A DNA stretch of 12,639 bases from an uncultured archaeon (GTDB lineage: Archaea; Asgardarchaeota; Lokiarchaeia; Sigyniarchaeales; SOKP01), in assembly GCA_964583985.1 (NCBI GenBank), contig CAZOYD010000084.1, forward strand, positions 1-12,639. The letters run 5' to 3'. A program made the position numbers and the translations under genes. Below, in pieces: positions 1 through 12,639 of the stretch (positions are counted from its first letter, which is position 1; each line of letters begins with the position of its first letter). The notes beneath the pieces were generated by a model. It had not been told where the DNA came from and made no database searches. It saw nothing but the letters and a program-made list of their open reading frames with translations.

Positions 1-149
1 GCCCTGATAGTCATGTTTTCTTGAATTCGCATCAGAGATTTTGAATTAGCATATTTTTCAATGTTCTCTTTATCATAATAACCAATTACATCGGAATATT
101 TGTCTTCGGGTCTTTTCCGTTTTATTTCAAATTTGTACTCATCATTCAC
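1..149 (-). CDS. Bud23/WBSCR22-like SAM-dependent SSU rRNA methyltransferase, N-terminal part (runs off the left edge of the window)
   Basis: Not in the ORF track. Manual translation from GTG at 149-147 (an in-frame TAA lies just upstream) gives MNDEYKFEIKRKRPEDKYSDVIGYYDKENIEKYANSKSLMRIQENMTIRA. The pattern RPE...YY......KY..S.....IQ..MT.RA matches the Bud23 N-terminus as I recall it (RPE...FY...EA.KY..S.R...IQ..MT.RALELL). The SAM-binding motif would lie outside the window. Confidence 0.75.
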   Translation of the reverse strand, partial: MNDEYKFEIKRKRPEDKYSDVIGYYDKENIEKYANSKSLMRIQENMTIR

Positions 150-325
150 AGAGATTTTGCCTTGATCATTTTATTTTCTGATTTAATATCAAAAATTCAA
201 GCATAAATCAAAAATTTTATTAAAATTTAAATATTTAACAACTCAGTTGTCAGAATTTTTCAAACTTAAAAATTCATAAATTAATAAAAAAATCTTGTAT
301 CCATGCATTGAATTAAGTGAATATC

Positions 326-625
326 ATGTCTGAAAAAGAAGAAAGGGTTCTTGTAAGAAAAGCTACATTGAATTTAAGAAGGAAATATGGCAGAACAAAA
401 CAGATTAACGTATTAGAAAGAGATGCTTTTATTCCAAGTTCTTTAGAAGAAGAAATAAAGGAATCTATTTTGAAGAGGAAATCTATACTGGCTTCCGATA
501 TTGCATTGAAGTATGATATTAGAATTTCTACAGTAAAACTCTTGCTTAAACAAATGGAACAACAAGGAGTAATCAAACTTCTTGATCCGTCGCTTAAACT
601 AAAAATTTATGTCCCTTCTTCCTAA
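326..625 (+). CDS. rps25e: 30S ribosomal protein eS25 (S25e)
   Basis: Basic 99-aa protein with a Lys/Arg-rich N-terminus and a winged-helix-like C-terminal pattern (ILASDIALKYDIRISTVKLLLKQMEQQGVIKLL...KIYV) typical of eS25. ATG at 326 is preferred over GTG at 317. Confidence 0.85.
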   Translation: MSEKEERVLVRKATLNLRRKYGRTKQINVLERDAFIPSSLEEEIKESILKRKSILASDIALKYDIRISTVKLLLKQMEQQGVIKLLDPSLKLKIYVPSS

Positions 626-660
626 TTTACATTTTATATGACAGAAGTAATGGTCAATTT

Positions 661-677
661 AGAAAAAAATTTATATT
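661..677 (+). promoter_or_regulatory. Putative archaeal BRE/TATA promoter for the tRNA
   Basis: Purine-rich AGAAAAAAA followed by TTTATATT (670-677), about 40 nt upstream of the mature tRNA 5' end. The AT-rich background lowers certainty. Confidence 0.45.
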
Positions 678-714
678 CAACTATACTATACCTAAATGAA
701 GAATTCATATAAAT

Positions 715-818
715 GCAGATGTAGCCTAGTTGGTAAGACGCTAGCTTCGAGCGCATGAGATATGACTGAGAAAGCTGGTGCGTGAAAACGTTCGGGGGTT
801 CGAGTCCCTCCATCTGCG
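715..818 (+). tRNA. tRNA-Ser(CGA) with a 21-nt intron at the canonical 37/38 position
   Basis: Acceptor stem GCAGATG/CATCTGC (715-721/811-817). D arm GCCT-AGTTGGTA-AGAC. Anticodon stem CTAGC/GCTGG with anticodon CGA at 748-750. Long variable arm GCGT-GAAA-ACGT. T arm GGGGG-TTCGAGT-CCCTC. Discriminator G818, as expected for Ser. CCA is not encoded. Confidence 0.95.
752..772 (+). other. Archaeal tRNA intron with bulge-helix-bulge splice motif
   Basis: Central 4-bp helix TTCG(746-749)/TGAG(767-770) with 3-nt bulges AGC(750-752) and AAA(771-773). Outer helix G-CATG/TATG-A-C. Removing 752-772 restores a 7-nt anticodon loop TTCGAGA. Confidence 0.9.
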
Positions 819-850
819 TTCATTCTTCTAATATTGTGTGTGATAATCTA

Positions 851-1927
851 ATGAATAAAGAAATTATCGTGTTGGGAGAATTACATCAGGATCTCTATTA
901 TGAAAGTGAATTATATGATAAATTAGTTGAAAAAATCACAACAAAGTTACTGAATTTTATACATCATAATCCTGATGATTTTAATTCAAAAATAGCACAT
1001 AAAATTATCACACAAGCATTTGGAGAAATTCCCAAGAAGATTGAAGATAAATGTTACATCAAAAGAGGAGGGAATGGTAATAATTCTGCAGAATATCTAT
1101 CCCGATTAGAAATTCCGACGAAACTAATAGCGATTATAGGTCGTGATAGTGAATGGATGATTTCAGAATTATTGGAAAATGGAATTAATACAGATTATAT
1201 TTTTCAGAAAGATGTTCCAACTCCTATTAGTACAATCATAAAATCAAAAATTACAACAAAAATTCATATAGCTTCAAATTTTAAAGAAAAGATGAATTTT
1301 GAAGGCATGGATATTCCTAAAGAAGCATTCGAAAATGCTAAGATAATATTTACAACACCAATATCATCTGTATCTAAACTAGTATTTGAGATGGGCGAAT
1401 CATTTGGGTTAATTACAGCTTTTAATATAGAAGAACAGAAAATTCATTCCCTTGAACAATTATCAAATATCATTGAAGAAACAAAAGATATTTTTTTTCT
1501 TAATCTTAATGATGCTAAATTAATATTAAAAGTGAATCTTGATTTAGACAAAATTGATGAAATTTTTCGCCAATTTGCGAAAGTTAGGGTATATACTGCC
1601 GGTGAAAAGGGATCTTATCTCTTTACTGATCATTTTCATATTTCTCAACCAAGTATTAATATAAAAAAAGTCGTTGATTTGACAGGAGCAGGTGATACTT
1701 ATGCAGCGGGTTTTTTGTCTAAAATCTATGAACTTATTAACGATAAAGATCACTTTCAAAAATCAGCAACAACGGAACGAAAGGAAGAGTTTAAATCTAT
1801 TTTAAAAGAATCGATGAAATTTGGCACTATCGCTTCTTCATACAAAATAACTAACCAAGTGGCCCCATCAAAAGGAGAACTTGAGGAATATGTTAAACAA
1901 CTCGAAAAATCAGAAATTAATGAGTGA
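851..1927 (+). CDS. PfkB/ribokinase-family carbohydrate or nucleoside kinase
   Basis: Signature 1 (RGGNGNNSAEYLSRL) and signature 2 (VDLTGAGDTYAAGF) are present, as is the N-terminal strand IIVLGELHQD. The start is moved to ATG 851 because the track start (782) lies inside the tRNA. Confidence 0.9.
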   Translation: MNKEIIVLGELHQDLYYESELYDKLVEKITTKLLNFIHHNPDDFNSKIAHKIITQAFGEIPKKIEDKCYIKRGGNGNNSAEYLSRLEIPTKLIAIIGRDSEWMISELLENGINTDYIFQKDVPTPISTIIKSKITTKIHIASNFKEKMNFEGMDIPKEAFENAKIIFTTPISSVSKLVFEMGESFGLITAFNIEEQKIHSLEQLSNIIEETKDIFFLNLNDAKLILKVNLDLDKIDEIFRQFAKVRVYTAGEKGSYLFTDHFHISQPSINIKKVVDLTGAGDTYAAGFLSKIYELINDKDHFQKSATTERKEEFKSILKESMKFGTIASSYKITNQVAPSKGELEEYVKQLEKSEINE

Positions 1928-1929
1928 TT

Positions 1930-2862
1930 TTACTGGATAATTTGGAATATGATATTTTCCATTTGAGGTTTTGCAGATTCTAATTTATTTAGAATTTCTA
2001 CTGTTCTTTCCAGATTTTCTATATCTTCTTCTACGATAAAAAGCAAATAAAACTCTAAATTGCCAAATTTAAGAACTTCAATTAGCCCAGTATATCTTTT
2101 CCCATTTTCATACATATCTGAAAATTCATAAAACTTGCGATTTTCAGACAGGATCTTTTTCTGAGCTTCGAGATATTTTTCATATATTCGTAATTTTTCA
2201 CGTAATTGTAAATGGGGACGATAATATTCCCCAATTGTAAAACCTCTTGAATCAAATAATGCGATCAAAACTGAATTATAATTTTTACTTATTTCAGCAA
2301 ATAATTGGGACACCATCTCCATTTTTTCAAACAGCAATGACAAACCACTTGAAAATGCGTCCATTATTGATTTTATATCATATATTGAAGTTTCAAAGAA
2401 AAATATATCAAATTCAGTGCTATATCTCATCAACGCTTGTTTTATTGTTAAAATATGCTGATTTAATTCTAAATCTTTATTAATTTCGGGATCAAATTTA
2501 TGGAAAAGAATGCACACTGGTGGATATTCTTGCTCTTCTTTGAGATGAAGTAATATCTCATCCAAATAATCTATGGTTTGTACATAACGATCATAATCTT
2601 GAGCATCAATTACATAATAAATGAGATCCATACCGGAAAGGTATCTCGACGGATTTTTTAAATATTCCTCTCGATATTGAGTTTGACCACCAAAATCCAT
2701 CCGTATAAATTCAATTCCAAGAAATTTAAAAGCATCACGAGCAATTCTTCTAGTAGGCATCAATTTCATTACATCTTGTTCAAAACCAAACCGTTTCGTT
2801 ATAGCTGTAATTATACTGGTTTTACCTGCATTATCTAGTCCCAGAAACCCTAATTTTTTCAT
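1930..2862 (-). CDS. Rag/Gtr-like (Arf-related) small GTPase with C-terminal roadblock/longin-like domain
   Basis: G1 GLDNAGKT, G2 MPT, G3 DFGGQ, G4 HKFD, G5 ETSIYD. HKxD and TSIY are Rag-type. A C-terminal extension of about 130 aa begins helix-LIALFDSRGFTIG, which is roadblock-like. Confidence 0.85.
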   Translation of the reverse strand: MKKLGFLGLDNAGKTSIITAITKRFGFEQDVMKLMPTRRIARDAFKFLGIEFIRMDFGGQTQYREEYLKNPSRYLSGMDLIYYVIDAQDYDRYVQTIDYLDEILLHLKEEQEYPPVCILFHKFDPEINKDLELNQHILTIKQALMRYSTEFDIFFFETSIYDIKSIMDAFSSGLSLLFEKMEMVSQLFAEISKNYNSVLIALFDSRGFTIGEYYRPHLQLREKLRIYEKYLEAQKKILSENRKFYEFSDMYENGKRYTGLIEVLKFGNLEFYLLFIVEEDIENLERTVEILNKLESAKPQMENIIFQIIQ

Positions 2863-2916
2863 TTTCTTAAATAATGGTTGATGATGATAATTATAAGTTA
2901 TTCATGAATCTTAGGA

Positions 2917-2924
2917 TTTATAAA
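2917..2924 (-). promoter_or_regulatory. Putative TATA box for the GTPase gene
   Basis: TTTATAAA about 55 nt upstream of the ATG, preceded on the minus strand by the purine-rich CGACAAAA. Confidence 0.35.
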
Positions 2925-3016
2925 TTTTGTCGTAAAATCTTTTAATTAGACTAAATTTAAATAATGATTAAAAGAACATATTCAAAACTTAATTATTATG
3001 AAGATGCATGATAACT

Positions 3017-3298
3017 TTATCCTCCTGAAATCGGAAAGGATAAATAAAGTTTATCTCCTTCTTTCAATTTAGTCCTATAATTCTTTAGATAAGTAATATT
3101 TCTTCCATTTAGTAATACAATCATGATAGGATTCAATCGCTTTTTATTTTTGCTCAGAATACTTTCATCAAGACTATCTCGATAATCATTCAAAAATTGA
3201 GTTATAATATCGCCAACTGTTATTCCATCATATTCGATCTTGCTTTTTTTAGTCCTAAGAGCAAAGATATTCAGTAGGTTTAATTCAATTTTTACCAT
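3017..3298 (-). CDS. MoaD/ThiS/SAMP/Urm1-like ubiquitin-fold sulfur carrier
   Basis: 93 aa. Beta-grasp pattern (TVGDII...IVLLNGRNI...TKLKEGDKL) and a C-terminal PISGG diglycine. Confidence 0.92.
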   Translation of the reverse strand: MVKIELNLLNIFALRTKKSKIEYDGITVGDIITQFLNDYRDSLDESILSKNKKRLNPIMIVLLNGRNITYLKNYRTKLKEGDKLYLSFPISGG

Positions 3299-3378
3299 TT
3301 TCTTTTTATAAGGGTTAATATTAATTGAAATGATAAATCTCTTTAAAACTTCATGGTATTTAAAATAAAGGATGAAGA

Positions 3379-4626
3379 TTAAATAACAGATTCTTTGGAT
3401 TGAGGCAAAGAAATTCTTATTAAGGCAAGGTTATTTAAAGATTCCTCAATTAAAGGATTAATATCTAAATCATCGAAAATTTTTAGAATATTTACTGGAT
3501 CATAGGTTTGATTTTGAGGTTTTAATTTACAATAATCAAAAACTTTCAAATTATTCGATATTTTTTCTCTTAAATTGTTTATTTCTGCAACATTAAACCC
3601 AATTAAAGGAGTGAAGATCGGATAATCTGAAAATAGATTATTTAATGCTAATGATTCCAAATCTACATTGTCATCACAATGGGAGGTGTTTGTCAAAGCC
3701 AGCCCATCAGTGAATGCTCTGATTTTATCATAACGCTTACCTTCAAGCTTAGACTTCAAAATTCCAATCAGTCTAAATCGGATTAGGCGGCAAATTCCAC
3801 AAGTTAGTTCAGCATTATTAATTTTAGGAATCACTTTTTCTAATATTTGCAACAAATTAATCTTGATTAGCATGAAATTAGAATAAGGGGTATAATCTAA
3901 TAATTCCCTCCAATTTGATTCCCAGATGGTAATATTTTCTTGATTGTTCATCATATTAAATAGTATTGGAAAAATATTGCACCCTCGCTTCATCAACATG
4001 AAACCAGCAATCAAATCATCTATTCTCCCAACATCCATGACGAATATTTTTTTTGGTGATTCAATTGGGAGTCCTACCCACGGTGTTTTTATGATTTGAG
4101 AAAATACATAAGAGAAATCATCGCGAATTTCAATAAAGATTTTCTTGTCAGGATTTGATAAATTAACTTTTAATTCAAAATCAGATAATTCTTCAATTAT
4201 ATTTTTTCCTACGATTTGAGCGACATCTAGAGAGGTATAATCATGGGTACCAGATCTCCGTACTCTTAAAGCAAATGTGTCTCCTTTCGTGAAAATTTCT
4301 TTAGCAATTTCAATAACTCTTTCGCTAATGTTATTAATTTTATTTGAAGTTCTTAAAGCGGGGCTTACTGAAAAAATTCCAAATACCTTTTTCAGTACAT
4401 CAATTGCATTACTTAAATCATCATTTTTGAAGAAAAAAAATATTCGAGATGAGTCCTTACTTAGTTGATACTTAATGAATGGAATTCCGTTTCGATTAAG
4501 GGCGTTCTTGATATTATCCATTAAGATTTTTAGCATCCGTATCTTGACTTTTTGAGATTTTAACCAAATTTCAGAGTAACGGATGATTACCAAATTATAC
4601 TGTTTTAATAAAATAAGTTTTTCCAT
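3379..4626 (-). CDS. thiI: ThiI-like THUMP-domain protein (tRNA 4-thiouridine synthase family) with degenerate PP-loop
   Basis: N-terminal IIRYSEIWLKS, VFGIFSVSP, THUMP motifs TFALRVRRSGTH and KVNLSNPD, linker GLP, and LMKRGC all fit ThiI. The canonical SGGxDS is replaced by VGRIDD. CGIC and a distal Cys (FDYC) are retained. Confidence 0.8.
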   Translation of the reverse strand: MEKLILLKQYNLVIIRYSEIWLKSQKVKIRMLKILMDNIKNALNRNGIPFIKYQLSKDSSRIFFFFKNDDLSNAIDVLKKVFGIFSVSPALRTSNKINNISERVIEIAKEIFTKGDTFALRVRRSGTHDYTSLDVAQIVGKNIIEELSDFELKVNLSNPDKKIFIEIRDDFSYVFSQIIKTPWVGLPIESPKKIFVMDVGRIDDLIAGFMLMKRGCNIFPILFNMMNNQENITIWESNWRELLDYTPYSNFMLIKINLLQILEKVIPKINNAELTCGICRLIRFRLIGILKSKLEGKRYDKIRAFTDGLALTNTSHCDDNVDLESLALNNLFSDYPIFTPLIGFNVAEINNLREKISNNLKVFDYCKLKPQNQTYDPVNILKIFDDLDINPLIEESLNNLALIRISLPQSKESVI

Positions 4627-4701
4627 GCTAAATGATTCCAGACATCCATCAATATGATAATTATTATAATTTATTAAATGAAAAAAGTCTTAACTTTTGG
4701 G

Positions 4702-6297
4702 CTATACAAAAATACTTATATAATAATTACCAATAATTCGATATTTTCCCGTTTTTAGATTATGTTCCTTTAAAACTACAAGTCCTTTCTCAAAGATTTC
4801 TATCTCAACAAACACTTCATCAAATCTTTTTCCCTCAAGATTTCCACCATTTGAAAATACCGTATTTTCAATCTTTACATTGAATGAAATACTCGGAGAA
4901 CTATTTAATACTAAATCAATTTGCGATCGTGCAAATTGAGATAACGCATCTCCTGAATCCAATAATTCAGTTCTCCATACACTTGATGGAGTAGGAATTA
5001 ATCCGTGAAAACACGCTACACCTAAGATTTTCTTATGATTTAGTGAAACTACTTGTTCAATAAAATTATTTAGCTTTTTTCTACCTATAAAACCTTCTTT
5101 TGAGTCTGGAGTTGTTGAATTGATTCCCTGAAAATAGAGATTTTCACTCTCATAAAGAGGATTCAATTCCCCTATATAGTGCTCCCAATAATCCCACGCA
5201 GGAGGGATAGAATCTAAAGGGCCTGGAACTACCATGAACGGGTGTCTAAATAAACTCAAGATTTCTTTTGAAATAATAAATTCTTCTTTATAACTGTGTT
5301 GCGTTAGGTTTCCCGCGTGAACTACCAATTCTACGTCTTTATATTTATTTATTTCTTTAATGACTTTTTCTAAAATCCTCAGTTCATTTTCTGATTGTTC
5401 ATTGATTAATGAATTTGAAATCTGAAAAATTCTACAAATTGGGACTCGATTCTTAATAAGTTCTAAAGGCACATAATATTTGACCTCTCTATGAATTTTT
5501 TTCGGAGAATTTGATTCTAAGACAGGTATAATTTGAAAACTAACGCTTTCTCCATCAATTTCTATTATAGAATATGTAAAAAGCTCCCGATATCTGGTTT
5601 TATTGCAACAAAATGTACCAGCATTGAAAATAAACATGTCTTTCTCACTACTACTCACAGTATACAAATTAGAGATGTGTCTGTGTCCATTTAAAACAAG
5701 ATCAGCTCTTGCATCTAAAAGCATTTGAAGCATATCTCCTGAATCATCAATTGCTGAACGTTCTTTACCCGTATTAGGAATAGGAATGAGTTGATGATGA
5801 AAACATACTACTTTGAATTTTTCTTCCCGTGAGGGGGTTTCTAATTCCTTGCGAACCGTATCAATAATACTATGATGAATTATACCTCCTGGAAGATCTG
5901 GTTTAGTACTATCAATTCCAATTACATATATATCATCATCTTCGTATTCATAATGACGTCGCCCAATCATTTCCTCAAATAATAAATAACCAACATTCAT
6001 CGCATCATGATTTCCGATAAGCATCATTATTGGTGCTTTAGAACGTGGATTAAATTTTGCTAATTGTTCTAAACTAAATTCATATTCTAATAAAGTTCCA
6101 GAATGCGTGATGTCTCCTAAGTGAAGAAATAGAGATACATCCTTAATTTTGTTTATTTTATCGATCCCTACATTAAAAGCATGCAAATTATAAGCCCCCC
6201 CAGAACGACTAAAATGAGTATCTGAGATTATGACAAATTTTTTCTTGGGAAGGATCCTTTCTGATGTATTAAAACGTAAACTTTTTTCCGTTGTCAT
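4702..6297 (-). CDS. Tandem calcineurin-like metallophosphoesterase (CpdA/Icc-like); N-terminal domain intact, C-terminal domain degenerate
   Basis: Domain 1 has ISDTH, LGDIT, GNHD, FHHQ and NGHRH. Domain 2 is an internal duplication (DSTKPD/NSTTPD, LIPIP/LIPTP, DSGD/DSGD, ADLVLN/IDLVLN) with the metal ligands replaced. Confidence 0.9.
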   Translation of the reverse strand: MTTEKSLRFNTSERILPKKKFVIISDTHFSRSGGAYNLHAFNVGIDKINKIKDVSLFLHLGDITHSGTLLEYEFSLEQLAKFNPRSKAPIMMLIGNHDAMNVGYLLFEEMIGRRHYEYEDDDIYVIGIDSTKPDLPGGIIHHSIIDTVRKELETPSREEKFKVVCFHHQLIPIPNTGKERSAIDDSGDMLQMLLDARADLVLNGHRHISNLYTVSSSEKDMFIFNAGTFCCNKTRYRELFTYSIIEIDGESVSFQIIPVLESNSPKKIHREVKYYVPLELIKNRVPICRIFQISNSLINEQSENELRILEKVIKEINKYKDVELVVHAGNLTQHSYKEEFIISKEILSLFRHPFMVVPGPLDSIPPAWDYWEHYIGELNPLYESENLYFQGINSTTPDSKEGFIGRKKLNNFIEQVVSLNHKKILGVACFHGLIPTPSSVWRTELLDSGDALSQFARSQIDLVLNSSPSISFNVKIENTVFSNGGNLEGKRFDEVFVEIEIFEKGLVVLKEHNLKTGKYRIIGNYYISIFV

Positions 6298-6306
6298 AGT
6301 ATTTAA

Positions 6307-7041
6307 TTACTCTATTATTTTTGCTGGATGCCCCCCGTATAAACAATCTTCCTCTAAAATGAAATCATAGTTGCTATAAGAGTGTGCTGCTAATTTTGCT
6401 TTTTTTTTTACAATTGTACCTGGGAGAAGAACGCATTTAGCGCCAATAAGAGCCTCATCTTCTATGAGAATTCTCTTCAAAATAAATTTATCTTGCTCGA
6501 TTCCAAACGTTAAGATTGTAGAATTCATGCCCAAAATGACATTCTTACCGATTCTAACAAACTCTGACGAAATCCAAGTATTATCACATAAAGTGTGCTT
6601 ACCTATTCTTACGCCGAAGAATCTCAGTGTGAATCGATTTTTGAGCCAGGGAAATGGATTAGATGCAGTAACAAATAATGCCCATTTTTTAACAATATTT
6701 CTCATGTTCCAGAAATAGTATTCTTTATCTTTTACATTTCGTTCAAAGATCCCTTCCTTCGGAGCATGAATTAAATTTATCATTTTTAAAATTAGAAATG
6801 ATATCACGATGGCACTAAATTGGAGAAGATAAATCATGCATATTAAATTGAGAGGAAATAGAAGTATAAATATTACATAAAATTGAATTCGCCACAAATA
6901 AAGAACGATAAAGTATTCCATAATTGATACTGGAATAAAGCTGAGCAATATTATGAGTATATATAACGGAATGAATTTTTTTCTGACGTTCTCATCTATT
7001 GGTGTTGGAGAATCACCTTTCAAGCTAGCAGGTTGAAACAT
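6307..7041 (-). CDS. Membrane-anchored left-handed beta-helix (hexapeptide repeat) acyltransferase-like protein
   Basis: Two long hydrophobic N-terminal segments, then PKEGIF, FFGVRIGK, hexapeptide repeats (VRIGKN, ILIEDEALIGAKCVLLPG) and a terminal GGHPA. Confidence 0.8.
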   Translation of the reverse strand: MFQPASLKGDSPTPIDENVRKKFIPLYILIILLSFIPVSIMEYFIVLYLWRIQFYVIFILLFPLNLICMIYLLQFSAIVISFLILKMINLIHAPKEGIFERNVKDKEYYFWNMRNIVKKWALFVTASNPFPWLKNRFTLRFFGVRIGKHTLCDNTWISSEFVRIGKNVILGMNSTILTFGIEQDKFILKRILIEDEALIGAKCVLLPGTIVKKKAKLAAHSYSNYDFILEEDCLYGGHPAKIIE

Positions 7042-7044
7042 AGG

Positions 7045-7887
7045 TTATTCCTCCATTTTTTTTGGAGATTCTTTAATCTTTGTGACCTTCTCTTGAGATT
7101 CTTCAACGGATTGCAACGGTAACTTAATATTAACGGGAGTCCCAACGTGGATCAAGTCACTCTCCAATCTTTGACCAATCATTGTATAACTATTTGCCCC
7201 TAGTATTGCTCTATCATCCATTTGTGTTCCCGGAGAAATAATCGTTTGAGGTCCCACCACGCAAGCTTCACCAATCTTGACTTTCTGGATCAATACTCTA
7301 TCCTGATAAATTAAATGAGAAAATATGCATATATTCAAAGAAGTCATCGTAAAATTACCAATTTCGATAAAGTAGGGATCCACATATCCCTCATATAAAA
7401 CTACATTTTTACCAATACGAACTCCAAAAAATCTATAAACAAAAATATCCGCCCAAGGTATTGGTAACGCTCTTGCTAACCAAACTGGAAAAAACGCGGT
7501 CCAAAATTTCCGGTGTACATATTTCCATTCTTTAGTATCTCTTAAGAATATTCCTTCTTTTTGTGGAGATAATTTATTTAAAATCTTAAAAATGACAACC
7601 GAGAAGAGAATTATTGAAAAAGCAAATAAATAAGCACATCCATAAATATTTAAGGGAATGAGGCAAATAAAAAATACGCGTTCCAAAATTGAATCATTAA
7701 TAGGGTAAGGAAAAATAATTTGACCCGTAAAATAATAATACAAGTTATTCCAGTACCATGAGTTGGCAAGGATTGTAATTAACACCCCAACATACAATTG
7801 CACTATTATTACCAGCGTAAAAGGAGTTTTGTATACTCCGGAAGTGGATATAAATTGTACATTCTTAGCTGATATCTCACTTTTCAT
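7045..7887 (-). CDS. Membrane-anchored left-handed beta-helix acyltransferase-like protein (paralog of 6307..7041)
   Basis: Hydrophobic N-terminal helices, then QKEGIF, FFGVRIGK, IFSHL, VKIGEACVVGPQTIISPG and a terminal VGTP. Confidence 0.8.
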   Translation of the reverse strand: MKSEISAKNVQFISTSGVYKTPFTLVIIVQLYVGVLITILANSWYWNNLYYYFTGQIIFPYPINDSILERVFFICLIPLNIYGCAYLFAFSIILFSVVIFKILNKLSPQKEGIFLRDTKEWKYVHRKFWTAFFPVWLARALPIPWADIFVYRFFGVRIGKNVVLYEGYVDPYFIEIGNFTMTSLNICIFSHLIYQDRVLIQKVKIGEACVVGPQTIISPGTQMDDRAILGANSYTMIGQRLESDLIHVGTPVNIKLPLQSVEESQEKVTKIKESPKKMEE

Positions 7888-8008
7888 GATATATAACTTG
7901 CTTGATGCCTCTATTCTTCAATATATCATTATATGATCAGCACTTAATTTATATTTTTTATACCATCATGTAAATAAAATTAAACATTAGAAATATTAAT
8001 GGAATAGG

Positions 8009-8659
8009 TTATCTCAGATGAAAATTGTAATTATTCTTTAAAAGTTTCATCATTCTTAAGATAAGACGTAAATTCTCGTTATTACTATTAATATTTATAG
8101 AATTCGTTTGAAATTCCTTGAGGAAACGCGTTTTATAGCTAGTTGGAATCAATATGCTTTTTAATTCGGAAATTATTTTTCTTATAAGGATATCCTCTGA
8201 ATTCAATACGTGAAGATTATCTTGTAGTGAATAATTCTGATCATTTAAAATATCTGAAAATGCACTTTCGTCAATGATTATGCTATCTACCATGCCCCCG
8301 ATTTCTTTCGATATCTTATCAACATTGTTTAGCGTAAAATCATTATCATTGTTTCTTAAAATGATTAGAAGCCATAAATCCGCAGGAATTTGTGAAAGAA
8401 GATAGATATAATCTCGGTTTTTAATTAATGACGTGCTATATGTCTTTCCCACGAACATATCATCGAAATTATCCATTTCTGAGAAAATGGAGCAAGCTTT
8501 TGAACATATCTCATCCGGGTCAATACTATATCCATCAGGCACGCAATTAGCTATAGGCAAGGCCTCAACATCAATAATGTGAGCTGAATAAAAAGAATTC
8601 TTAAAAATTCTCTGTAATTTCTGTAATACTTTTTCAAAATTAGCTTGTAAATCTATCAT
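8009..8659 (-). CDS. Roadblock/LC7 (LAMTOR/MglB-like) domain protein with Asn-rich C-terminal extension
   Basis: The first ~125 aa follow the roadblock order helix-beta-beta-helix-beta-beta-beta-helix (FEKVLQKL; SAHIIDVEALPIA; DPDEICSKACSIF; SLIKNRDYIYLLSQI; LWLLIIL; VDKISKEIGGMV). Confidence 0.7.
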   Translation of the reverse strand: MIDLQANFEKVLQKLQRIFKNSFYSAHIIDVEALPIANCVPDGYSIDPDEICSKACSIFSEMDNFDDMFVGKTYSTSLIKNRDYIYLLSQIPADLWLLIILRNNDNDFTLNNVDKISKEIGGMVDSIIIDESAFSDILNDQNYSLQDNLHVLNSEDILIRKIISELKSILIPTSYKTRFLKEFQTNSININSNNENLRLILRMMKLLKNNYNFHLR

Positions 8660-8821
8660 TAGCGCAACATCATTTTTAAAGAGATATAAGTTTATTCAAA
8701 ATGTATGTTTTTAAAGTTCTAATAAAATATCGCTCGAAAAAGAAATAAATAATTTTGTTAATATCCCATTAAAAATATTGATTCACATAAAATTGACCCT
8801 TCTTCATTAAACAATCTAAGA

Positions 8822-9391
8822 TCATTTTTTCTTGAATTTTTTACCGATACTCCACGCTCTCCCTATGTGATCTCCAATCTTCCAGTAATTATTATCATTC
8901 ATTGTAAAAATTATCGGTTTGAATTTTTTCACATCAGGGATTCCATTAGTAAGGTTTTTTTCCTCAGCATATGCCCCAATGATTTCACCCATAAAAATCT
9001 CATGTCCAAAACCCAAATCAACAGTCTTTATCAATTTACATTCTAAATTTACAGGTGCTTCCATTATCATCGGGGCTGTTTTTAAATCACCGTAAAACAA
9101 TTCAAATAGCTCAGACTTATCAATATCTACTCCTGAATTAAGACCACAAAAGTCAGTAATTTCCACCATTTCCTCAGAAGGAAGATTAACACTAAATGTT
9201 CCATTTTCCTTTATTCCTTTGTTCGTATAATGTGATTGAGATGCTGAAATCTGGATCATTGGTGGATGGTGCTCTATAATCTGAACCCATGCAATAGGCA
9301 TAAAATTTGCCTTGCCTCCTACATTTGCACCAATAATTACCACTGGCATTGGATATAGATACATGCCATTTCTAATTTTATTCTTTATCAT
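8822..9391 (-). CDS. Flavin reductase-like / flavoredoxin (DIM6/NTAB family) FMN-binding protein
   Basis: LYPMPVVIIG, NFMPIAW, HYTNKGI, FSVNLPS, CGLNSG..IDK, APMI.EAPVNLEC and HEIFMGEI. Confidence 0.92.
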   Translation of the reverse strand: MIKNKIRNGMYLYPMPVVIIGANVGGKANFMPIAWVQIIEHHPPMIQISASQSHYTNKGIKENGTFSVNLPSEEMVEITDFCGLNSGVDIDKSELFELFYGDLKTAPMIMEAPVNLECKLIKTVDLGFGHEIFMGEIIGAYAEEKNLTNGIPDVKKFKPIIFTMNDNNYWKIGDHIGRAWSIGKKFKKK

Positions 9392-9531
9392 TGTATCATC
9401 TTTAAGTATTATTTATCTTAATAAAAGATTGTACGAGTTAAATAATTATTTCGAAAGAGAAAATGCATCTTATTTTCATATTTGGACTTCTAAAAAAATC
9501 TTTATTTTATGCAAATTATGCTTAGAAAGCA

Positions 9532-9613
9532 TATCATAGCCATGGTGAGAATTATGAGGATTTTCACCAAGATTATAATTAACCTTTAGCCTCCTAAAAT
9601 TCTTGGCTTGATA
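9532..9613. ncRNA. Candidate structured RNA element (unassigned)
   Basis: 11-bp hairpin at 9543-9569, a small hairpin TTTAG-CCTC-CTAAA, and an enclosing stem TATCA-T-AGCCA/TGGCT-TGATA. No RNA family recognised. Confidence 0.3.
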
Positions 9614-9742
9614 ACAACACAGTTCTTTTTTTGTACTTTTTAGTTTTTATTTCATTAAAATTAAATATATATCCAATTATTGTTTATTTAACTAAAATGA
9701 TCAAATTAGATTCAACAATATTCTATTACGAGTGTGAAAAAT

Positions 9743-10654
9743 ATGTCGATTGATTGGGCCGCCGCAGAAGCCAAACCGGACAAAGGGCAAAAGGTTGAAG
9801 GCAGATTCTTACTGGATCTCAGAGCTAAAGTCAATGATCTTGAACAACAGCTTAGTGAAAATAAAAAAGTTATTTCTGACACTCAGAAAAAGCTCCAAGA
9901 CACTACTCAAGCTTTAGATAAGGAAACTAATGAGCATAATTCAACCAAATCTACCCTGGATGGTGTTAAAACTGAATTGAATGCTGTTAAATCAACTCTC
10001 CAACAATATAATGCTGAAAATAAGAGTAAAGAGCAAACAATTATTAGTTTAACTACAGAACTTGATGGGTTAAAAACGAGCCTAGAGGAATCAAATTCAA
10101 AAATTAGTGAATTAGAAGCTAACTATCAAGCAAAAGAGAGCGAAGTGGGTGTTTTAAATGAAAAAAATGCAAGTTTAACGGCTGATTTGGATGATTTAAA
10201 AAATGAATTAAATAATGCAATGAGTCTTGGTTCAGAATCTCAAGAGAAAATGACTCAACTTTCAAGTGAAATCCAAGAATTAAAAAGCAAACTTGAATCT
10301 GCTCAATCAGAGAATGCAAGTCTTCACTCCCAATTGCAAGAAATGAATGACTTATTGCACCAAAAGGATTCAGAAATTCAGAATTTATCGGGTTCTATTG
10401 GTGAAAAAGAAAAACTGATTGAAGCTCAAACATCTCTCATCGAAGAAGTAGAAACTGAACTGAGTGAGTTAAAGCCTCCTGAAATTGGATCGGGTGGTTT
10501 TGTTAACGATGAGAGAACCACATGTCCCATGTGTGGTGCGGTAGGGCATAATATTAAACAAATTGAAGATAAAGGCAAAGTATTGAGCTACGTGGGTCAC
10601 ATTCCCATGTATGCAAAGAAACACGTCTGTAAGAAGTGCGGATACGAATTTTAA
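9743..10654 (+). CDS. Long coiled-coil protein with C-terminal C4 zinc ribbon
   Basis: About 220 aa of proline-free, E/K/Q/S/L-rich heptads, ending in CPMCG...CKKCGYEF. ATG 9743 is preferred over GTG 9734. Confidence 0.85.
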   Translation: MSIDWAAAEAKPDKGQKVEGRFLLDLRAKVNDLEQQLSENKKVISDTQKKLQDTTQALDKETNEHNSTKSTLDGVKTELNAVKSTLQQYNAENKSKEQTIISLTTELDGLKTSLEESNSKISELEANYQAKESEVGVLNEKNASLTADLDDLKNELNNAMSLGSESQEKMTQLSSEIQELKSKLESAQSENASLHSQLQEMNDLLHQKDSEIQNLSGSIGEKEKLIEAQTSLIEEVETELSELKPPEIGSGGFVNDERTTCPMCGAVGHNIKQIEDKGKVLSYVGHIPMYAKKHVCKKCGYEF

Positions 10655-10677
10655 CGTATGTAACGTGAAAAAATTAA

Positions 10678-10765
10678 TTTTTTTTGTTCATTTCTTTTTA
10701 ATCTTTTAAATAATAAAGTAATTTTCTTAATTGGTTAATCTTAATAAAGAAAAAAAAAAAGAAGA
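10678..10765. terminator. Probable oligo-T terminators between convergent genes
   Basis: T-tracts on + (from about 10678) after the coiled-coil gene, and a long A-run on + (about 10746-10765, oligo-T on -) after the MFS gene. Confidence 0.5.
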
Positions 10766-10775
10766 TAAGGTTACA

Positions 10776-12164
10776 TTATATTCGTGATTTTTTTTGATCA
10801 TGTATTTTTTGACGTTCTTCTTTTACTTTAAGAAGTCTTTCTCCGTGTAAGGGATATTTATATATTGCTAAGGCGGCAATAACTAATGCTATGGCAGGAA
10901 GTGCAAACATTAATATTTTTAAACCTATAGTCACGTTTATTCCAGGGTTGGGCACATATCCTCCGCCCCACTCAGTTCCTGAGAAAACAATTCCAATGGC
11001 TAAAATAACTAGAACATTAGAAAATCGAAGAACGAACGCATTAACACCATAATATCCCGCTTCTCGTCGCATACCCGTAACTGTTTCATCTTCGTCAATA
11101 ATATCGGCTACTACTAAATCGATAATAAATAATGATCCTGATAAACCGATTCCGATCAAAAAGAAGACAATCAACCCTCCAATAAATTCGCTTATAAATA
11201 AGGTTCCCGAGAGTGATAAAATCCAAATTATAAAAGAAATTATCCAAGCTTTCCTATTCCCAATTTTTCGCACTAAAGGTTTCCATAAAAATGTAATGAA
11301 TATAGTTGCTGATATGAAAGTAGTTGCTAACAGCAGTGAAGTAGATAATCCAACAACTTTTAGCACTTCTCCTGCATACAAGGGAACAATAGTGGGTAGC
11401 ATACCATACACGAACCATACACACGTCTCTGCTATGATATACCATCTAAATGATTTGCTTTTAAAACAATATTTTATTGTTCCGAAAAATCCGAAAGCTT
11501 TTTGATAATCCTGTTGGAATTCTACTCGTTCTTTGGGACCAAAGATAAGAAATATTAATGCGCAAGCAACAATGATAACTGCAGCGATGATTCCAAATAA
11601 TTGATATTTCGGTAAATTATTTGGATCTCTATAATCGTCAATTATCATACCCGGTAAAATGAAAGCGAATATTAAACCAACGATTGTAAAAACTTGTCGT
11701 ACATTATTAGCTTGAGTGCGTTCTTGTTGTGTCATAAAAATCTCTGGAAATAAAGAGGTTAGATTCAAGCTATAGATGGTATAAAATAGCTCAAATATCA
11801 CGATGACTATGAAAAAGTAAATAAAATTGGCTACCATGCTTGTATCCCCAAAACTTATCGGTGGAAAGTACAAAAATATAACCGTAATTGCTAATGGAAT
11901 AAATGCACCTATAATATAGGGTAGCCTTCAACCGAGTTTTGTATGAGTTCTATCAGATAGAAATCCCATCATTGGATCATTAACCGCATTCCACACAGAC
12001 CAAATTGAATATCCTAATACCATCAACCAGGTACCAATCCCTACAACAGCAAAATAAAAAGTAAAGATTAACAAAATGAAGGATTGATAAGACAATACGT
12101 CGCTAATCTGCCCAAAACTGTAGAACAGTGCTTTTCGTCCCGAACTTCTTTCCTTTTTACTCAT
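10776..12164 (-). pseudogene. GPH/MelB-family MFS sugar:cation symporter with one in-frame TGA at 11928-11930
   Basis: Track ORFs 11928..12164 and 10776..11873 are in the same frame. The read-through translation is ...WNAVNDPMMGFLSDRTHTKLG*RLPYIIGAFIPLAITVIFLYFPP..., 462 codons before the final stop. The C-terminal motif ADIIDEDE..TG.RREAGYYG is typical of the GPH family. Confidence 0.8.
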
Positions 12165-12225
12165 GAATGATCATTTACCAAAAATTTAAAATTTAAATCT
12201 AATTCAACCTCATAGTAAATAAAGA

Positions 12226-12639
12226 TTATTCGTTTTTTTTCTCATAAGAATACTGAGTATTGCATATTTTAAATCCTAATTTTTCATAAACATGAATCGC
12301 AGGGGGATTATCAACCCTAACTGTAATAAGGCATTGTTTTTTATCTTGAAAAAGTATTTTTAAAACTGATGAGACTAATGAACTGGCATATCCCTTATTC
12401 CAATAGTCGGGATGAGTTCCAACAATCGTGATATATCCCACTTCTTCATATTTCCACAGACTTGTAATACAAACTATTTGGTTTTGATCAAATATTCCAT
12501 AAAGGATGTTGTTTTCATCTATCAAGATATCTTCCGGTTTGCGAGAACCCCAATAGACAGGATCAGTAGTTCTCATTAAATTAGCGATATCAGCTTTATA
12601 TTCTTGAGATAGTACTGTAAATTCATATTTCTCACGCGA
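12226..12639 (-). CDS. GNAT-family N-acetyltransferase (5'-truncated by the window edge)
   Basis: Motif A VGTHPDYWNKGYAS and motif B V..DNPPAIHVYEKLGF. The frame stays open from 12576 to the window end (SREKYEFTVLSQEYKADIANLMRT...). Confidence 0.9.
   Translation of the reverse strand, partial: SREKYEFTVLSQEYKADIANLMRTTDPVYWGSRKPEDILIDENNILYGIFDQNQIVCITSLWKYEEVGYITIVGTHPDYWNKGYASSLVSSVLKILFQDKKQCLITVRVDNPPAIHVYEKLGFKICNTQYSYEKKNE

Follow-up and report, generated by a model that had tools for sequence, protein, structure and literature searches.

A ThiI-like pseudo-enzyme of a Lokiarchaeial family and its candidate catalytic partner in a proposed two-gene tRNA 4-sulfurtransferase

We analysed a 12,639-nucleotide stretch of DNA from an uncultured archaeon (GTDB lineage Archaea; Asgardarchaeota; Lokiarchaeia; Sigyniarchaeales; SOKP01; NCBI GenBank assembly GCA_964583985.1, contig CAZOYD010000084.1, positions 1 to 12,639 of the forward strand), referred to below as the window. 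The window is AT-rich (GC about 30%) and carries on its minus strand the gene for P0001, a relative of the tRNA 4-sulfurtransferase ThiI in which the ATP-binding site has been replaced. ThiIL is used here for P0001 and its family orthologs, G000 for the genome of the window, and f1 for the window's GTDB family. P0001 is probably the non-catalytic, tRNA-docking subunit of a heterodimeric synthase of 4-thiouridine at position 8 of tRNA (s4U8), with P0125, a stand-alone PP-loop ThiI encoded elsewhere in the genome, as its partner; it would then represent a Cys-retaining variant of the orphan PH1313 (PDB 1VBK) family. No published account of a two-gene ThiI or of the P0001 family was found in the literature on ThiI, THUMP and Asgard archaea, on PH1313 or on THUMP-less ThiI. 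New here are a clean co-deletion of the two genes, reciprocal loss of a neighbouring ubiquitin-like protein (Ubl) and the four-Cys variant of the protein.

P0001 has the domains and fold of ThiI and has lost the ATP site

The gene and the parts of it that matter for the argument are as follows.

3379-4626, minus strand: P0001, a ThiI-like pseudo-enzyme of 415 amino acids with NFLD, THUMP and a full-size PP-loop-like domain, and a dead ATP site (translation, Pfam, AlphaFold2 (AF2), Foldseek, orthologs, and the ratio of non-synonymous to synonymous substitution rates, dN/dS)
4102-4590, minus strand: NFLD (residues 13-88) and THUMP (residues 97-175), the predicted docking module for the tRNA acceptor stem and CCA end (Pfam PF22025, E = 1.5e-15; PF02926, E = 2.2e-15)
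4015-4035, minus strand: the former PP-loop, now D198-V-G-R-I-D-D204, aligned to SGGIDS of 2C5S/4KR6
3790-3801, minus strand: CGIC (residues 276-279, with C276 and C279), invariant; archaeal [4Fe-4S] TtuI has its CxxC cluster ligands at the equivalent positions
3676-3708, minus strand: DGLALTNTSHC (residues 307-317), the remodelled dimer-interface/ATP loop, ending in C317 (3676-3678); from motif search and alignment
3529-3531, minus strand: the distal Cys366, equivalent to Cys348 of Methanococcus maripaludis TtuI and present in 120 of 121 orthologs (one gap)

Pfam matched P0001 to ThiI_fer (residues 13-88), THUMP (97-175) and, weakly, the ThiI PP-loop domain PF02568 (200-357, E = 7.6e-11). An AF2 model built on 38 orthologs had a pLDDT of 87 and a pTM of 0.86, and Foldseek aligned it with full-length ThiI structures (2C5S, TM 0.78/0.87; 4KR7, TM 0.80/0.85). 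The modelled fold therefore appears complete, with the loss limited to chemistry. VGRIDD (residues 199-204, positions 4015-4032) takes the place of SGGxDS, DGLALTNTSHC stands where canonical ThiI has the GE-x-LGQ-x-ASQT loop, and the canonical Arg positions that contact the ATP phosphates are Leu in the P0001 family. Against the TIGR00342 equivalog P0001 scored 148 bits, below the cut-off of 264.5 bits. P0001 thus has the NFLD + THUMP + PP-loop architecture and the fold of a catalytic ThiI, and has neither SGGxDS nor the GE-x-LGQ-x-ASQT loop nor the Arg; the CxxC and distal Cys of the archaeal [4Fe-4S] TtuI subclass are present in its sequence. Judged by these features, it is ThiI-like in its working, yet no catalytic ThiI/TtuI, because the PP-loop motif, the ATP loop and the equivalog score all fall outside those of ThiI. 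A preliminary description of the window, made by a model from the DNA letters, had already reported the intact ORF (open reading frame), the kept THUMP module, VGRIDD, DGLALTNTSHC, CGIC and the distal Cys, and all of these motifs and coordinates were verified.

The ATP-site loss is conserved in a family under purifying selection

Database searching showed P0001 to have more than 120 intact orthologs (51-84% identity), all from Asgard metagenome-assembled genomes, and 121 sequences were aligned. SGGxDS occurred in none of the 121; D198-[IV]-G200-R201-x-x-D204 was essentially invariant, with D198, G200, R201 and D204 invariant or nearly so. C276, C279, C317 and C366 were the invariant Cys residues, and C216 varied. 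C317 is a family-specific fourth Cys that sits inside the former ATP/dimer-interface (GEQASQT) loop, for which the family consensus is D-G-x-[ST]-L-N-x-x-x-C-x-D. The loss of the PP-loop together with retention of the Cys residues, which the preliminary description had seen in P0001 and wished to follow in its orthologs, is thus a conserved state; the invariant C317 and the near-invariant D-to-D motif had escaped it.

As a reference set we took the positions with 80% or higher conservation in 20 canonical Asgard ThiIs. The P0001 family keeps 23 of the 26 such positions in the NFLD/THUMP half and 18 of the 48 in the PP half, and every ATP-contacting position is changed (the Ser/Gly/Asp/Ser of the PP-loop, the Arg, and the Glu/Gly/Ser-Gln-Thr of the loop). 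By this measure the tRNA-docking half appears preserved and the active site remodelled. The dN/dS of P0001 against close relatives was 0.12-0.21, about 0.14, and was similar for the PP-like half in most pairs. Taken together, the alignments argue firmly for a conserved, selected pseudo-enzyme rather than decay. The missing catalytic motifs speak for a decaying pseudogene, or for local decay in one genome; this explanation was rejected in view of the intact orthologs, the shared replacement motif, the dN/dS values and the confident AF2 model, and we give it practically no credence.

In a phylogenetic tree the canonical Asgard ThiIs formed one supported clade, and the f1 type fell outside it as sister to the dead type of another family, f2 (Shimodaira-Hasegawa-like approximate likelihood ratio test, SH-aLRT, 98), which makes it an old paralog and not the result of a recent breakdown. 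When a library of 1.8 billion representatives was searched with the profile of the P0001 family, 108 of the best 150 matches had no PP-loop motif, and the D[IV]GRxxD form was found in only about three full-length 50%-identity clusters.

A PP-loop-only ThiI is encoded elsewhere and was lost together with ThiIL in three genomes

G000 is 100% complete by marker genes, and only two of its proteins matched the ThiI domain strongly, P0001 and the THUMP-less P0125. No complete ThiI, with THUMP and a live PP-loop in one protein, was found in a search of this genome, which answers the question raised in the preliminary description of whether a canonical ThiI accompanies P0001: what accompanies it is the separate, live PP-loop-only P0125, encoded on contig C19 (18372-19049, minus strand) and missed in that description. 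P0125 is 226 amino acids long, has no RNA-binding domain, retains SGGLDS, CILC, GDILGEQASQT and the distal Cys intact, and scores 144 bits against Pfam ThiI. THUMP proteins number two in G000, P0001 and a protein of ~187 amino acids. Since P0125 consists of the PP-loop domain only and P0001 joins THUMP to a dead site, one has the chemistry without the RNA handle and the other the handle without the chemistry.

We scanned 150 genomes of the phylum, 25 of them in f1 counting G000, for the distribution of the two genes. Strong orthologs of P0001 (46-58% identity) were restricted to f1. Within f1, 22 of the 25 genomes had ThiIL, and exactly the same 22 had the PP-only ThiI, as an open frame of about 215 amino acids (50-65% identity), so that a live THUMP-less ThiI is both present beside the dead protein and co-distributed with it. 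Both genes were absent from the remaining three, G049, G131 and G149, which belong to genus g2 and are 94-99% complete; there, the Pfam ThiI search gave only weak matches to other PP-loop enzymes. At the ThiIL locus of these genomes two hexapeptide-repeat genes (Hex) and a metallophosphoesterase gene (MPE) are followed directly by the genes for the Ubl, a GTPase and S25e, with ThiIL cleanly gone and no remnant of it detected by tblastn. The PP-only gene lies at an unlinked second locus, where its neighbours in f1 are a 133-amino-acid ORF and a gene for a CxxCxxCC-domain protein; in the same three genomes these two neighbours are 16-18 nt apart, the PP-only gene having been deleted between them. 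Neither ThiI gene has been lost from its locus in G008, a sister genome. Two unlinked, precise deletions have therefore occurred within one lineage with all flanks preserved, as would be expected if either gene is useless without the other. Co-occurrence and co-deletion indicate that the partner of ThiIL is the stand-alone PP-loop ThiI, as far as gene content can tell.

The CxxCxxCC gene (PF03692, putative Zn/Fe chelating) lies upstream of the PP-only ThiI gene and overlaps it by 31 nt (contig C19, L001:1435-2828, minus strand). The same pairing is present in four other f1 genomes, and the CxxCxxCC gene persists where ThiI has been lost.

The same pairing recurs in other Asgard families

THUMP-bearing ThiI-like proteins without a PP-loop were also found in at least seven other Asgard families (f2, f5, f13, f16, f22, f24 and f27), that of f5 being PH1313-like at about 310 amino acids. 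Each genome with such a protein encodes, at a separate place, a PP-only ThiI of 208-257 amino acids in which S-x-G-x-D-S and GEQASQT are present. The families with a canonical fused ThiI (f3, f4, f6, f8, f9, f12, f17-f21, f25, f26 and most of f7) have mostly that gene only.

Two variants were seen along the way. The f22 type (L069, L077, L078) has lost the PP-loop and kept CxxC plus a CC pair. Two proteins of f7 (L072, L073) fall inside the canonical clade and have a degraded PP-loop (LSATLAS and IDGSLAS) with an intact GDVIGE; they look like a recent, independent start toward a dead ThiI-like protein.

A proposed two-gene s4U8 synthase

The structure of Thermotoga maritima ThiI with RNA shows a dimer formed through the PPase domains and catalysis in trans: one monomer holds the acceptor stem with its NFLD/THUMP and thereby places U8 in the active site of its partner (PMC4041423). 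With presentation in trans across such a dimer, a heterodimer of a dead THUMP protein and a live PP-only protein would have exactly one productive site. In the arrangement that we propose, the NFLD and THUMP of P0001 would hold the acceptor stem and CCA end of the tRNA, its PP-loop-like domain, having lost ATP binding, would serve as a dimerisation face, and P0125 would act as the catalytic subunit of the tRNA U8 4-sulfurtransferase, the P0001:P0125 heterodimer retaining one trans-acting site. The sequences and genomes show which domains the two proteins have, that the ATP motifs are lost, that P0001 is conserved under purifying selection, and that the two genes occur and disappear together; that the proteins form a heterodimer, that its product is s4U8, and what the four invariant Cys residues do are what we infer. 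The preliminary description had offered a non-catalytic subunit analogous to Ctu2/Ncs2 as one of three options, and this is the one we favour; the partners it suggested were an NcsA-type enzyme and the Ubl, whereas the evidence points to the PP-only ThiI.

Several observations weigh against the heterodimer. The co-deletion happened once, in genomes that are close relatives, and two proteins that share a pathway and do not bind each other could have been lost in the same way. A family elsewhere in the phylum, f13, has a canonical full-length ThiI besides the dead and PP-only pair, and two genomes with canonical ThiI (G113 and G046) carry an extra PP-only gene, so exceptions to the pairing exist. 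The dead lineages of f5, f13, f16 and f2 have lost the cysteines, and a pure scaffold does not explain the four invariant Cys residues and the new D-x-G-R-x-x-D motif of P0001. A three-chain complex prediction (P0001 residues 186-415, the PP-only ThiI and the Ubl, the last being the scored partner) gave an ipSAE of 0.00 in both runs, was made without controls and counts neither way.

Four invariant cysteines and a putative metal site

In M. maripaludis TtuI three Cys residues (CxxC + C) hold a [4Fe-4S] cluster, the fourth Fe of which binds sulfide (PMC9825150). Most likely the four Cys residues of P0001 form, where the active site used to be, either a Zn site or a [4Fe-4S] cluster ligated by Cys alone, with a structural or a relay function. 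By analogy with the TtuI cluster, C317 of the remodelled loop could close the open Fe site.

One extension of the heterodimer model would make use of this site. The s4U8 synthase would then have two metal clusters, and the four-Cys [4Fe-4S] site of the dead subunit, lying near the dimer interface, would take sulfur or electrons, possibly from the thiocarboxylate of the adjacent SAMP/MoaD-like Ubl, and pass them on to its live PP-only partner. If true, it would be the first case of a ThiI supplied by a Ubl, with the pseudo-enzyme serving in a cofactor role; we regard it as distinctly unlikely.

Neighbouring genes and alternative explanations

Downstream of P0001, after a gap of 80 nt (3299-3378), the window encodes the following protein, as the preliminary description had correctly reported.

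3017-3298, minus strand: P0002, a GG-terminated beta-grasp Ubl of 93 amino acids, MoaD/SAMP1-like, the syntenic neighbour of P0001 (translation; Pfam, NCBIfam)

The profile scores of P0002 lie below the respective cut-offs (Pfam ThiS, 21.8 against 22.5 bits; NCBIfam moaD_arch, 42.8 against 49.5; SAMP1, 41.5 against 60). A role as the MoaD of molybdopterin synthase was set aside because no MoaE was found in a search of G000. This genome has five E1-like ThiF-family matches, one NcsA/TtuA-like gene and several other ThiS/MoaD-type genes, and given these genes and the missing MoaE the Ubl probably has other or multiple clients.

The idea that P0001 is a Ubl-coupled sulfur protein, in which the Cys cluster would take sulfur from the thiocarboxylated Ubl and pass it to tRNA or to the live ThiI with no ATP chemistry of its own, draws on the analogy with TtuB-TtuA and could be compatible with the heterodimer, acting on top of it. 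It is favoured by the CxxC + C and fourth Cys that P0001 keeps, by the GG end of the Ubl (G92 and G93 were invariant in 39 sequences), by the E1-like proteins and the missing MoaE of G000, and by gene order: of 47 informative species-level loci, 46 have the Ubl gene directly downstream of ThiIL and in the same orientation (at L043 the Ubl gene is cut off by the contig end). The exception, L008, tells little, because a TnpB/IS605-OrfB-like ORF (L008:5018-5518) occupies the Ubl's place downstream of the ThiIL ortholog and the contig ends within it. A further small hint toward a link comes from the Ubl tail, which reads SFP[ILM][SA]GG (LSFP[ILM][SA]GG) in genomes with ThiIL and SYALAGG (ISYALAGG) in the three without it (L083:8165-8446, L084:7988-8302, L085:8054-8335). 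However, the adjacency claimed in the preliminary description, although real, sits within a nine-gene block that is syntenic across f1 (CC, then Hex-Hex-MPE-ThiIL-Ubl-GTPase, then pfkB-S25e); since even the unrelated S25e and pfkB belong to the block, adjacency alone tells little. Nor are the two genes obligately co-inherited, the losses being reciprocal: the three genomes without either ThiI gene retain the Ubl (54-57% identity), and the two genomes of genus g3 (G019 and G030) have both ThiIL and the PP-only ThiI, with a gap of 68-139 nt at the Ubl's place and no convincing match to it elsewhere by profile search. At 18 loci sampled from the seven other Asgard families, three of them canonical controls, no Ubl was found beside the dead ThiI-like genes, so the adjacency is confined to f1; in addition, a cluster with four Cys ligands would leave no Fe free for sulfide. 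The link between the Ubl and ThiIL is thus weak, and we think it unlikely that Ubl-coupled sulfur transfer is the function of P0001.

The residues that a scaffold does not account for suggest another possibility, namely a novel enzymatic activity that would act on tRNA near position 8 without ATP, for instance another modification or the removal of sulfur, with D198, R201, D204 and the four Cys residues as the active site and the PP-only ThiI linked at the level of the pathway only. The invariance of the replacement motif and the four Cys residues in 121 orthologs goes beyond the needs of a scaffold, the THUMP/NFLD module is fully kept, and the pseudo-domain is under purifying selection. No known chemistry fits these residues, though, sister dead lineages without them still pair with a PP-only ThiI, and one two-part enzyme explains the co-deletion more simply; a new activity is in our opinion improbable. 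The least probable of the functional roles, and a very doubtful one, is that of a sensor or regulator (tRNA-binding or Fe-S/redox) coupled to the Rag/Gtr1-like GTPase and the tandem phosphoesterase, outside s4U synthesis. ThiIL and the GTPase and MPE genes remain syntenic throughout f1, and in f2 about 3.4 kb separate the ThiI-like gene from a Rag-like GTPase gene. But only synteny connects P0001 with these neighbours; the GTPase, MPE and Hex genes remain in genomes that have lost ThiIL and hence do not depend on it, and ThiIL was lost together with the PP-only ThiI and with none of its neighbours. The preliminary description had also suggested a link to the downstream GTPase, for which we found nothing beyond the synteny of the block.

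The GTPase directly after the Ubl (window 1930-2862, minus strand; Pfam E = 2.4e-24) is of the Gtr1/RagA type and has a long extension at its C-terminus; its identity across f1 is 66-92%, it belongs to a known kind of Asgard eukaryote-like protein, and it stays whether ThiIL or the Ubl is present or absent. Immediately upstream of ThiIL, two hexapeptide-repeat (left-handed beta-helix, LbH) paralogs and the tandem metallophosphoesterase form a tight operon (window 4702-7887, minus strand) that is found with 55-87% identity in nearly all f1 loci. Ribosomal protein S25e (window 317-625, plus strand; Pfam E = 1.1e-6) belongs to the same synteny block, so that conservation of the block is not all functional coupling. 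Further away, an MFS_2 transporter gene (window 10776-12164, minus strand) is split by one in-frame TGA at 11928-11930 (...TKLG*RLPY...); in relatives a single uninterrupted ORF spans both pieces (for example L083:876-2297), and pseudogene formation, recoding or a sequencing error may account for the split.

Comparison with known systems

The closest known relative in architecture is PH1313 of Pyrococcus horikoshii (PDB 1VBK), which like P0001 has NFLD, THUMP and a Rossmann-like domain without SGGxDS. It was the best sequence match in the PDB to the profile of the P0001 family (E = 8.4e-31, over residues 11-249 only) and a strong fold match. The two differ in that PH1313 has 307 amino acids, a truncated C-terminal domain and no CxxC + C, whereas P0001 has 415 amino acids, a full-size domain (TM 0.87 to 2C5S), four invariant Cys residues and its own D-x-G-R-x-x-D. 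P0001 is thus a THUMP-bearing ThiI homolog without the PP-loop motif and does not share the shortened C-terminal domain (~300 amino acids) of the PH1313 type; on sequence grounds we place it among the PH1313-type dead ThiI-like proteins, as a full-length, Cys-retaining variant limited to one Loki-type family. PH1313 is listed as an orphan ThiI-like protein of unconfirmed activity in a 2023 review by Hori (PMC9957541), although its crystal structure has been available since 2005. A two-gene synthase would offer a concrete, testable function for a large orphan group, relatives without a PP-loop being the majority of the top library matches to the P0001 family profile. The reciprocal gene losses described here amount to natural knock-outs, and the role of a metal site retained in a dead subunit is best studied in the four-Cys variant. 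For annotation, neither gene alone merits the name 'thiamine biosynthesis protein ThiI' or 'tRNA 4-sulfurtransferase'.

With the archaeal [4Fe-4S] ThiI/TtuI proteins (M. maripaludis MMP1354 and P. furiosus TtuI) P0001 shares the same three domains and the equivalents of CxxC and the distal Cys (C276, C279 and C366); unlike them, it has the PP-loop, Arg and GEQASQT contacts replaced and a fourth Cys added. The fold of P0001 is also that of the ThiI homodimers of T. maritima and Bacillus anthracis (4KR6/4KR7 and 2C5S), whose PPase-domain dimer is the template for the proposed heterodimer. These homodimers have two live sites, whereas the heterodimer would combine one dead subunit with one that has no RNA-binding half.

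Escherichia coli ThiI serves the GG-terminated Ubl ThiS in thiamine synthesis and needs its C-terminal rhodanese domain to do so. P0001 has no rhodanese domain, and P0002 is nearer to MoaD/SAMP1 than to ThiS.

In the eukaryotic thiolase of s2U34 (2-thiouridine at position 34), known as Ctu1-Ctu2 or Ncs6-Ncs2, a catalytic PP-loop enzyme is joined with a degenerate paralog, and the system depends on Urm1. The logic of the pairing resembles that proposed for P0001 and P0125; Ctu1-Ctu2 differs in belonging to the TtuA/Ncs6 clade rather than to ThiI, in acting at another tRNA position and in its dependence on Urm1. In the Foldseek comparison P0001 matched TtuA with an E-value of only ~1e-4, and no homology to Ctu/Ncs was seen beyond the level of the superfamily. 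If the two-gene synthase is correct, a textbook tRNA-modifying homodimer would have been re-engineered repeatedly into a pair of pseudo-enzyme and enzyme, much as in Ctu1/Ctu2.

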